DNA from: an uncultured Clostridia bacterium
GTDB lineage: Bacteria; Bacillota; Clostridia; Christensenellales; CAG-314
DNA: 64,000 bases
NCBI GenBank assembly: GCA_947570215.1
Contig: CANOTO010000001.1
Span: forward strand, 262,735 to 326,734
Direction of reading: 5' to 3'
Below are positions 7,536 through 7,948 of this stretch, one piece after another. The translations under genes and the position numbers were made by a program. The notes under the pieces were generated by a model. That model saw nothing but the letters and a program-made list of their open reading frames with translations. It searched no databases and had not been told where the DNA came from. Position 1 is the stretch's first letter, and the number at the start of each line of letters is the position of its first letter.

Positions 7536-7572
7536 AATTTCTCCTTGTTTTTTTGTTACGTTCCGTCAGCCG

Positions 7573-7613
7573 AAATTAAAACGTTTTAGCTGCGCGCCGC
7601 TAAACGCGTTTTT
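7573..7613 (-). terminator. Terminator-like hairpin T2 between the Com-like gene and the RHS start
   Basis: Arms AACGTTTTAGC (7580-7590) and GCTAAACGCGTT (7599-7610). On the - strand the hairpin is followed by UUUUAAUUU. Confidence 0.5.
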
Positions 7614-7620
7614 ACCCAAG

Positions 7621-7668
7621 CAACAAAAACGGCAAACAAGACTTCGACACGTAAGTCTTATTTGCCGT
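7621..7668 (-). terminator. Intrinsic terminator T1 immediately after the Com-like gene
   Basis: 16-bp arms ACGGCAAACAAGACTT (7629-7644) and AAGTCTTATTTGCCGT (7653-7668) with one mismatch. On the - strand it is followed by UUUUUGUUG. Confidence 0.7.
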
Positions 7669-7704
7669 CTTTACCGTCCGCGCTTTCGGGAACTTTTCTT
7701 GGCT
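7662..7704. repeat. 43-bp direct repeat, copy B (proximal boundary of the RHS island)
   Basis: TTGCCGTCTTTACCGTCCGCGCTTTCGGGAACTTTTCTTGGCT. See 92-134. Confidence 0.8.
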
Positions 7705-7706
7705 GT

Positions 7707-7877
7707 TTATTGCGGGGCGTTAACCGTCGCTTTGGGTATGGGAGCAAGCGCGACGTTGTTGTCGCCGATGCTCACTTCCACAATGGTTTTGCACTTGCTG
7801 CATTTTACCCGAACGCAGCTTTGCGCCTTGCCTTCGAGCAGCTTATGCCCGCAAACGGGGCAGTTGACGTATTTCAT
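7707..7877 (-). CDS. Com-like zinc-ribbon protein (56 aa; below the ORF-track cutoff)
   Basis: Hand translation gives MKYVNCPVCGHKLLEGKAQSCVRVKCSKCKTIVEVSIGDNNVALAPIPKATVNAPQ. The CxxC...(16)...CxxC spacing and the KLL / KCxKCKT context resemble phage Mu Com. RBS AAAGGAGATTTGTAA precedes the ATG. Confidence 0.6.
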   Translation of the reverse strand: MKYVNCPVCGHKLLEGKAQSCVRVKCSKCKTIVEVSIGDNNVALAPIPKATVNAPQ

Positions 7878-7920
7878 TTACAAATCTCCTTTTTATATTT
7901 TAGAACGAATGTTCGCCAAT

Positions 7921-7948
7921 ATAATAACACGGATTTTGCAAAAGTCAA
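7921..7948 (-). promoter_or_regulatory. Sigma-70-type promoter for the Com-like gene
   Basis: On the - strand: TTGACT (7943-7948), 16-nt spacer, TATTAT (7921-7926). Confidence 0.5.

Follow-up and report, generated by a model that had tools for sequence, protein, structure and literature searches.

In the operons of the E colicins a terminator stands ahead of the lysis gene, and in the BglG/SacY systems the regulator gene lies inside the operon that it controls, in which more than one terminator carries the same conserved 5' sequence tag. The com/mom promoter of phage Mu depends on Dam/OxyR and on the phage C protein. The Mu Com protein binds a short hairpin beside an inhibitory hairpin, with the loop motif CC(N)2-3GAG (PMC6483171); a holin-based lysis cassette (type 10 secretion) releases the RHS-containing Tc toxin of Yersinia entomophaga (PMC10847048); and the 2012 survey of polymorphic toxins contrasts these proteins with the lysis-dependent colicins, with no mention of holins or of the SOS response. 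RHS and other polymorphic toxins are usually discussed through dedicated secretion systems. Here we describe the control end of an RHS toxin operon on the minus strand of an uncultured Clostridia bacterium (Christensenellaceae-type), contained in a stretch of 64,000 nucleotides (nt) of contig CANOTO010000001.1 that we call the window. Its first gene encodes a small zinc-ribbon protein, hereafter the ribbon, and between this gene and the toxin gene lies an RNA element, P1-T1, composed of a small hairpin (P1) and a larger one (T1). To our knowledge, essentially nothing is known of how RHS toxins are regulated in Gram-positive gut anaerobes.

Judged from sequence and from comparison with related loci, the region could be a colicin-like, DNA-damage-inducible RHS toxin operon with a zinc-ribbon leader gene and a terminator-gated toxin, a reading that we hold with slightly less than even confidence. 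Each of the components is of a known kind and the combination is new; our literature searches turned up neither an account of RHS loci under SOS control nor one of RHS loci headed by a zinc-ribbon gene. The features on which the argument turns are the following:

7921-7948, minus strand: sigma-70-type promoter (-35 TTGACT at 7948-7943, 16-nt spacer, TG-extended -10 TATTAT at 7926-7921)
7902-7915, minus strand: putative LexA (SOS/Cheo) box CGAACATTCGTTCT, 5 nt past the -10 and over the expected transcription start
7886-7891, minus strand: ribosome-binding site (RBS) AAGGAG of the ribbon gene, seen in the sequence 8 nt ahead of the ATG
7707-7877, minus strand: Com-related zinc-ribbon gene of 56 amino acids (aa), recognised by conservation, the ratio of nonsynonymous to synonymous substitution (dN/dS), profile match and predicted fold
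7617-7703, minus strand: P1-T1 element, copy 1 (5' block GCCAAGAAAAGUU, P1, T1, U-run; covariance model R1, 83.6 bits, E 6.5e-18)
7677-7691, minus strand: P1 hairpin UCCCGAAAGCGCGGA, with 5 pairs, one bulged nucleotide and the loop AAAG, separated from the downstream T1 by 4 nt
7625-7672, minus strand: T1, intrinsic terminator hairpin with a conserved lower stem (AAAGACGGC/GCCGU), a variable upper stem and a U-run to about 7618
7573-7613, minus strand: T2, a second terminator proposed earlier, for which we find no support
7541-7546, minus strand: AAGGAG, the RBS of the RHS gene, left unpaired when the fold of the spacer is predicted
2679-7535, minus strand: RHS polymorphic toxin of 1618 aa, with a core that reaches to about residue 1346 and, beyond it, a variable C-terminal region of some 270 aa
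51-133, minus strand: P1-T1 element, copy 2 (R1, 92.6 bits), which closes a toxin-immunity-orphan array

The promoter TTGACT-16-TATTAT, which the first-pass annotation of this DNA had placed ahead of the small open reading frame (ORF), is present at 7948-7921, with a TG-extended -10; it matches the consensus at 10 of 12 positions and is the sole match of at least 10/12 returned by a promoter scan of 7000-8400. Equivalent promoters (10-12/12) precede the ribbon gene in the sister lineages scanned. The box CGAACATTCGTTCT agrees at 12 of 14 positions with the Firmicutes LexA consensus CGAACRNRYGTTYC, whose palindrome TACGAACATATGTTCGTA is found in 98% of Firmicutes lexA promoters (PMC2248561). 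A LexA-type box (CGAACAnnnGTTCT or a close variant) lies 5-13 nt past the -10 of a strong promoter in 10 of the 12 lineages, L022 carrying a perfect CGAACATATGTTCG core behind a TTGACA-17-TATAAT promoter; the 5'-untranslated regions (UTRs) of these genes have diverged and are 38-178 nt long, yet the box is kept. We infer that the ribbon promoter is under LexA (SOS) control: the sequence and its conservation are observed, and binding by LexA is what we deduce from them. The number of boxes in the window is not significant alone (2 exact boxes against 0.9 expected in 64 kb), so that the argument for LexA rests on position and conservation; among the box-like sites elsewhere in the window, none stands in a promoter context. 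A second good LexA-like box, CGAACTTTCGTTTA, lies at 30772 (within 30759-30785, minus strand), where the DNA is AT-rich and poor in genes and neither a promoter nor a gene is evident.

The 56-aa ORF at 7707-7877, which had been proposed from the letters of the sequence, is a real, selected gene. It encodes MKYVNCPVCGHKLLEGKAQSCVRVKCSKCKTIVEVSIGDNNVALAPIPKATVNAPQ, is conserved as a protein and is under purifying selection (dN/dS 0.06-0.32 over the first 45 codons across lineages, with synonymous sites saturated between distant pairs). Its RBS is as good as first described, and the CxxC-16-CxxC spacing was read correctly, with cysteines at 6, 9, 26 and 29. The N-terminal 45 residues are conserved and the C-terminal tail varies; AlphaFold2 predicts a confident, all-beta structure whose mean predicted local distance difference test score is 82, falling to 51 over the last residues, and the protein is basic (net charge about +5). 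A word-indexed search gave nine clusters of relatives, and a full profile search gave 169 representatives at E <= 1e-3; a metagenome scan with alignment A1 contributed two loci. The carriers of the gene are uncultured Christensenellaceae and Clostridia metagenome-assembled genomes. Within this superfamily, P0011 and P0123 have two ribbons in tandem, P0079 is a ribbon fused to an XRE-type helix-turn-helix (HTH), a weak hint, and P0032 looks chimeric.

The first reading had also likened the protein to Com, and this likeness holds for the fold and for the spacing of the cysteines, but not for membership in the family: against the Pfam family Zn_ribbon_Com (PF10122) the ribbon scores 12.9 bits, under the curated cut-off of 22.9. 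Its best library match is the PHROGs family phrog_6417 (E 8.9e-7), for which 'translational regulator' is an annotation name with no tested function behind it; each of the ten sister ribbons tested likewise has this family as its best match (E 4e-8 to 5e-5). Mu Com (sequence from GenBank AF083977) matches phrog_13819 first (E 4.6e-45) and phrog_6417 second (E 2.8e-10), and the window ribbon has no match to phrog_13819, Com's own family. When the ribbon profile is aligned with Mu Com by hhalign, residues 1-34 pair without a gap at 93% probability and cysteines 6, 9, 26 and 29 coincide; the Pfam Com family is reached at E <= 1e-3 by 27 of 100 superfamily members. Searches of PDB sequences with the ribbon family returned generic ribbons only (best E 0.0025), and a tblastn search with the ribbon as query gave no match among 50,697 annotated phages. 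On these profile matches the ribbon is related to Com through the sister family phrog_6417, and stands outside the Com family proper. Distant relatives do occur in 13 phage loci, none of which adjoins an RHS gene and many of which lie between head-morphogenesis and capsid genes. In five phage loci from IMG/VR (L027, L028, L034, L036 and L037) the ribbon relatives lie between head-morphogenesis and scaffold/capsid genes, and directly 3' of each stands a strong hairpin with a T-run; the pairing of a ribbon gene with a terminator may therefore recur in phages.

Downstream of the ribbon gene two terminators had been proposed, of which the first stands and the second does not. T1 is the strong hairpin that was claimed, here placed at 7625-7672: it folds with -27.7 kcal/mol (z = -6.5), none of 200 shuffles folds as well, and the U-run UUUUUGUUG follows. 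Its upper stem differs freely between copies yet always pairs, with compensatory changes; every copy folds and a U-run comes after each. T1 is thus an intrinsic (Rho-independent) terminator, a stable stem-loop with its U-run. T2 was rejected as a terminator (-10.2 kcal/mol, z = -0.03, 87 of 200 shuffles folding as well), and conservation of the stretch is lacking even within one species, between the window and L001.

T1 and P1 together form an element of about 85 nt. P1 is near invariant over 12 copies, and in L039 one of its pairs is changed on both sides (UA to CG). In the lineages that have a spacer between the ribbon gene and the next gene, about 40 nt ahead of the hairpin, and the lower stem, are near invariant (GCYAAGAAAAGnUCCCGAAAGCGnGGACnnUAAAGACGGC ... 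GCCGUCUUUU), and the 5' block is 83-86% identical between lineages that differ at 64-71% of synonymous sites. An exact 27-nt pattern of the element occurs twice in 64 kb, with 0 expected. Matches of R1 above 70 bits are found solely in these loci, at 2-3 copies each and all on the gene strand, with none elsewhere in 356 kb; R1 has no match in the lineages with overlapping genes, in the 13 phage loci or in the rest of the window, and a scan of IMG/VR for the exact P1-T1 sequence gave 0 matches. The placement of the copies is regular: one stands behind the ribbon gene and another behind every toxin-immunity module, L002 and L014 having three copies, the third between modules. In L001 and L002 a tail-fibre-like gene with collagen repeats comes after the far-end copy. 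Upstream of the ribbon promoter, at about 8040-8067 (minus strand), CTTGTCTTATTTGCCGTTTTTAT is like the 3' half of T1, but the region has lost its fold (z 0.14), and the sequence may be the remnant of an old copy of the element. An analogy with integron attC sites was rejected, there being no integrase among the called genes and every copy ending in a terminator-type U-run.

This placement raises the question of whether the element, taken by itself, is a cassette-boundary terminator, its 40-nt block kept by recombination as a homology arm and not as the site of a regulator. The occurrence of copies behind every toxin-immunity module (L002 and L014 have three apiece) would fit such an origin, as would the difference in RHS C-termini and downstream genes between strains and the mosaic formed by the window and L001, which have identical flanks and different T1 upper stems and spacers. 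The first copy, however, stands behind the ribbon gene instead of an immunity gene; an arm for recombination has no need of compensatory substitutions that keep a hairpin intact, nor of a U-run at the end of each copy; and the block is conserved where synonymous sites are saturated. We consider this account of the element rather unlikely, and it is compatible with a regulatory role, since the two are not mutually exclusive.

In each of the informative lineages (8 of 8, at 52-98% protein identity), a gene for an RHS-type toxin is found downstream of the ribbon gene and in its orientation, which bears out the suggestion that Com-like genes would be found upstream of rhs genes in related genomes; L009, L010/11, L020/21 and L022 are uninformative, their contigs ending early. 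The arrangements are:

Window species (L001-L008): ribbon, P1-T1, RHS
L014: ribbon, P1-T1, RHS
L012: stop of the ribbon gene overlapping the RHS start
L013: 4-nt overlap of the ribbon gene with the RHS start
L015/L038: 6-nt gap between ribbon and RHS
L017-19: 10-nt gap between the ribbon and a DUF6531/PT-HINT toxin, the N-terminus of which is homologous
L016: ribbon, T1, tail-fibre-like gene, holin, RHS
L039: ribbon, T1, holin, RHS

The absence of a -35/-10 pair upstream of the RHS gene, already remarked in the first-pass annotation, holds at the threshold that we used: no pair of at least 9/12 lies between T1 and the RHS ATG (7535). Over the intervals between T1 and the next gene in six lineages, a sigma-70-like scan likewise found no promoter of at least 9/12, and the few candidates of 8/12 are not conserved. 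In L039 the T1 homologue is 31 nt from the next ATG, and a second element is about 35 nt from its own. The lack of a promoter after T1, these short intervals and the lineages with overlapping genes together make a single transcription unit the best reading, and the comparative evidence supports the view that the ribbon and RHS genes form one. It is very improbable, we think, that the ribbon gene is instead an autonomous unit of promoter, gene and terminator, in the manner of a phage moron, unrelated to RHS and followed by an RHS promoter that escaped recognition. The window ribbon gene does have its own strong promoter and strong terminator, consensus scans are blind to non-canonical promoters, and a marginal 8/12 candidate, TTTAGC-18-TTTAAT, can be seen by eye in the 90-nt spacer; against this stand the constant linkage to the toxin across such a range of protein identity, the four lineages whose genes overlap or nearly abut, the 31-35 nt between T1 copies and ATG in L039, and the lack of conservation of the marginal candidates.

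Compared with L001 and L014, L012 shows a natural deletion of 149 nt (L012 10100-10236) that removed the end of the ORF, P1-T1 and the next hairpin, and that fused the frame up to the RHS start, giving ribbons of 69-74 aa (P0004-P0006, three protein clusters). In the window (7536-7625, minus strand), the stretch GGAACGTAAC...AAAAAAACAAGGAGAAATT that precedes the RHS RBS resembles the stretch before the ribbon RBS in L013 and L010, which suggests that the ribbon gene has moved within an ancestral leader.

From these observations we propose the following course of events. The near-consensus promoter, with the LexA box over its start, would be repressed by LexA and would fire in the SOS response. 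The first product would be the basic zinc-ribbon protein of 56 aa, of a phage family related to Mu Com, after which transcription would meet P1-T1, that is, a conserved small hairpin and then a strong intrinsic terminator. As the RHS toxin-immunity genes appear to lack a promoter of their own, they would be expressed solely by read-through of P1-T1, as the comparative evidence supports, and the same sequence-tagged terminator would be met again after each toxin-immunity module. In the sister lineages that lack P1-T1, ribbon and toxin genes would be translationally coupled instead. We tentatively suggest, as a possibility that we hold to be somewhat doubtful, that the ribbon is an RNA-binding factor which recognises the conserved P1 together with the sequence of the lower stem and makes T1 less effective. 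The toxin would then be made only where SOS induction and a build-up of the leader protein coincide, a Com-like logic acting on termination. The wider form of this idea, in which the ribbon is a minimal sequence-specific RNA-binding antiterminator for the tag of every P1-T1 and licenses the whole multi-cassette RHS array (with the holin and tail-fibre-like genes in sister loci), seems to us rather unlikely; if true, a Com-fold antiterminator would be a new class, and a two-key gate of DNA damage and leader protein a new logic for polymorphic toxins.

Several observations weigh against the picture just drawn: (i) The LexA box is absent in L039 and in L017-19, the latter located on a recombinase-flanked element, and no core SOS gene was found among the ten large window ORFs scanned, so that the box is uncalibrated there. 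(ii) The Pfam match to Zn_ribbon_Com has an E of only 0.08 and ranks twelfth, below generic zinc-ribbon families; Foldseek against viral models returned nothing at E <= 1e-3, with Com outside the top 50; and the AAAG loop of P1 is without Com's CC(N)2-3GAG motif. (iii) The ribbon gene is kept without P1-T1 in L013, L015/L038, L017 and L009, and by deletion in L012, so that antitermination at T1 cannot be the sole or the ancestral role of the protein. (iv) No inhibitory structure covers the RHS start in the overlapping lineages (z -1.8 to +0.8), and an attenuator in their long 5'-UTRs was rejected, with one weak candidate, in L015. A start codon masked in the manner of Com was rejected as well, the RHS RBS and start being unpaired in the window and unstructured in the overlapping lineages. 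(v) Those P1-T1 copies that stand behind immunity genes might be ordinary terminators at operon ends, their likeness maintained through the exchange of cassettes. (vi) No holin was found in the window locus, nor within 10 kb downstream in L001 and L002. Beside the first of these points we note that in L039 the ribbon gene (7001-7162) has a TTG start, and that an HTH protein of 100 aa (6598-6900) precedes it; this gene may provide an alternative regulatory input.

Because the ribbon is kept without P1-T1, with neither a masked start nor a UTR attenuator, and because P1 lacks the Com motif, the protein may have a more general role, as a partner of the RHS protein or as a transcription factor. 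As a partner at the protein level it would be a chaperone, an adaptor or an assembly or release factor, made along with the toxin from the leading gene of the operon, and T1 would be a passive attenuator with no effect but to lower the dosage of toxin relative to that of the ribbon. Small accessory genes (Eag/DUF1795, Lap proteins) commonly lie just upstream of polymorphic toxin genes, and the overlapping or tight stop-start codons in four lineages are typical of co-translated partners; the ribbon is retained where P1-T1 is absent or deleted, and the N-terminal region of RHS past residue 30 is conserved across the same lineages. However, the nearest relatives of the ribbon form a phage Com-related family, in phages without RHS; the protein is small and, with its net charge, resembles nucleic-acid binders; a terminator between the genes of stoichiometric partners would be unusual; and a holin and/or a tail-fibre-like gene separates ribbon and RHS in L016, L039 and L010. 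On balance we regard this partnership as rather unlikely.

A role as a DNA- or RNA-polymerase-binding transcription factor that does not bind RNA, either activating late or toxin genes or acting as an anti-repressor that locks SOS induction, we judge quite improbable. Zinc ribbons occur in many such factors, the weak Pfam matches of the ribbon include TFIIB, RPB9, Elf1 and Brz, and one might add the fusion of ribbon and XRE HTH in P0079 and the position of the L039 ribbon gene behind a small HTH gene. Nevertheless, no promoter-like target was found downstream of T1, the best family is the Com-related phrog named as a translational regulator, and the conserved non-coding sequence is a transcribed hairpin; its compensatory changes point to an RNA structure rather than to a site in duplex DNA.

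The nature of the downstream gene itself was settled with profiles. Single-sequence matches of the 1618-aa ORF to Pfam and NCBIfam fell below threshold and phmmer against PDB gave none, but a six-member family profile matches solved Rhs proteins (E 2.2e-45), the consensus shows YxYDxxGR/N repeats and the core-end motif NPFRWKGFYYDxETGLYY...YDP, and a TEN_YD-shell is found in the RHS orthologues. By these sequence criteria the ORF encodes a divergent but genuine RHS protein. Its N-terminal region past residue 30 is conserved across lineages; among strains the RHS protein measures 1616, 1631 or 1641 aa, and the genes behind it differ. Behind the RHS gene come:

2304-2663, minus strand: candidate immunity gene of 119 aa, which covaries with the RHS C-terminus between strains
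177-2092, minus strand: array of small orphan-toxin and immunity-like genes

The second of these is a typical orphan cassette array behind an RHS gene, with a TNT-domain (tuberculosis necrotizing toxin) fragment at 1730-2092 (minus strand; Pfam E 2.4e-10), after which small immunity-like ORFs occupy 177-1715 (minus strand).

Some sister units include a collagen-repeat, tail-fibre-like gene and a phage holin; the holin, in L016, L039 and L010/11, matches phrog_6918 (E 5e-8) and scores 24.7 bits against Phage_holin_6_1 of Pfam, whose cut-off is 24.9. By inspection, the N-terminus of RHS has no evident signal peptide. The presence of a holin and a tail-fibre-like gene in sister units suggests release by lysis of a toxin that lacks a signal peptide.

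As regards the setting, the window carries gyrA and gyrB (50845-55248, minus strand), nrdD (19732-22095), spoIIE (33183-35459) and tRNA synthetase genes, which identify it as chromosome of a spore-forming Firmicute, neither plasmid nor phage. A strong terminator at 8176-8211 (minus strand; -22.5 kcal/mol, z -7.2) closes an upstream ABC-permease operon and so insulates the ribbon promoter from it. Rfam applied to 6500-9000 gave only two sub-threshold matches (L20_leader and STnc240), both at the permease terminator, which look like chance.

Taken together, this family of loci appears to be run like a colicin operon, with a LexA-controlled promoter, an internal terminator and, in some relatives, a phage holin, and it adds two new pieces, a Com-related zinc-ribbon leader gene and a sequence-tagged terminator that is repeated after toxin-immunity modules. 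If the ribbon acts on the tag, about 56 aa and about 85 nt would make a compact antitermination switch, and DNA damage in the gut, for example by antibiotics, would be tied to competition by means of toxins in Christensenellaceae. Whatever the mechanism, related toxin loci can be sought with the LexA box and P1-T1 as markers.

How, then, does the locus compare with the systems named at the outset? As in colicin and S-pyocin operons, a LexA-type box overlies a strong promoter, and toxin and immunity gene share one unit; as in colicin operons, an internal terminator limits downstream expression, and a holin, a lysis-type function, is present in sister loci. Unlike the colicins, which are plasmid-borne, the toxin is a chromosomal RHS shell protein of some 1600 aa with orphan cassettes, the first gene encodes a zinc ribbon, and the terminator, placed ahead of the toxin, is met again behind each module. 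The closest known system for release is that of the Yersinia entomophaga Tc toxin, with which the holin-assisted release of large clostridial toxins is grouped: there too, a large RHS-containing toxin without a signal peptide stands beside a phage holin, as in L016, L039 and L010. The two differ in that no endolysin or spanin was identified in these loci and the window locus has no holin, and in that the host is Gram-positive and the control proposed is by LexA.

With Mu Com the ribbon shares a four-cysteine ribbon of about 60 aa, with its cysteines at 6, 9, 26 and 29 and a variable C-terminal tail of low predicted confidence, a gene immediately upstream of (and, in relatives, overlapping) one that is dangerous to its producer, and a small hairpin beside a larger inhibitory hairpin in the mRNA. 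It departs from Com in falling below the Pfam Com threshold and belonging to phrog_6417, in that the inhibitory hairpin is an intrinsic terminator and not the mask of a start codon, in having an RHS toxin gene downstream where com has a DNA-modification gene (mom), and in the LexA box of its promoter. With respect to the RAT (ribonucleic antiterminator)-terminator antitermination of BglG and SacY, the ribbon is without CAT or PRD domains, and in the predicted folds P1 and the terminator stem are separate, whereas the plan is the same in two respects: the candidate regulator is encoded in its own operon, and one tag is set on several terminators.

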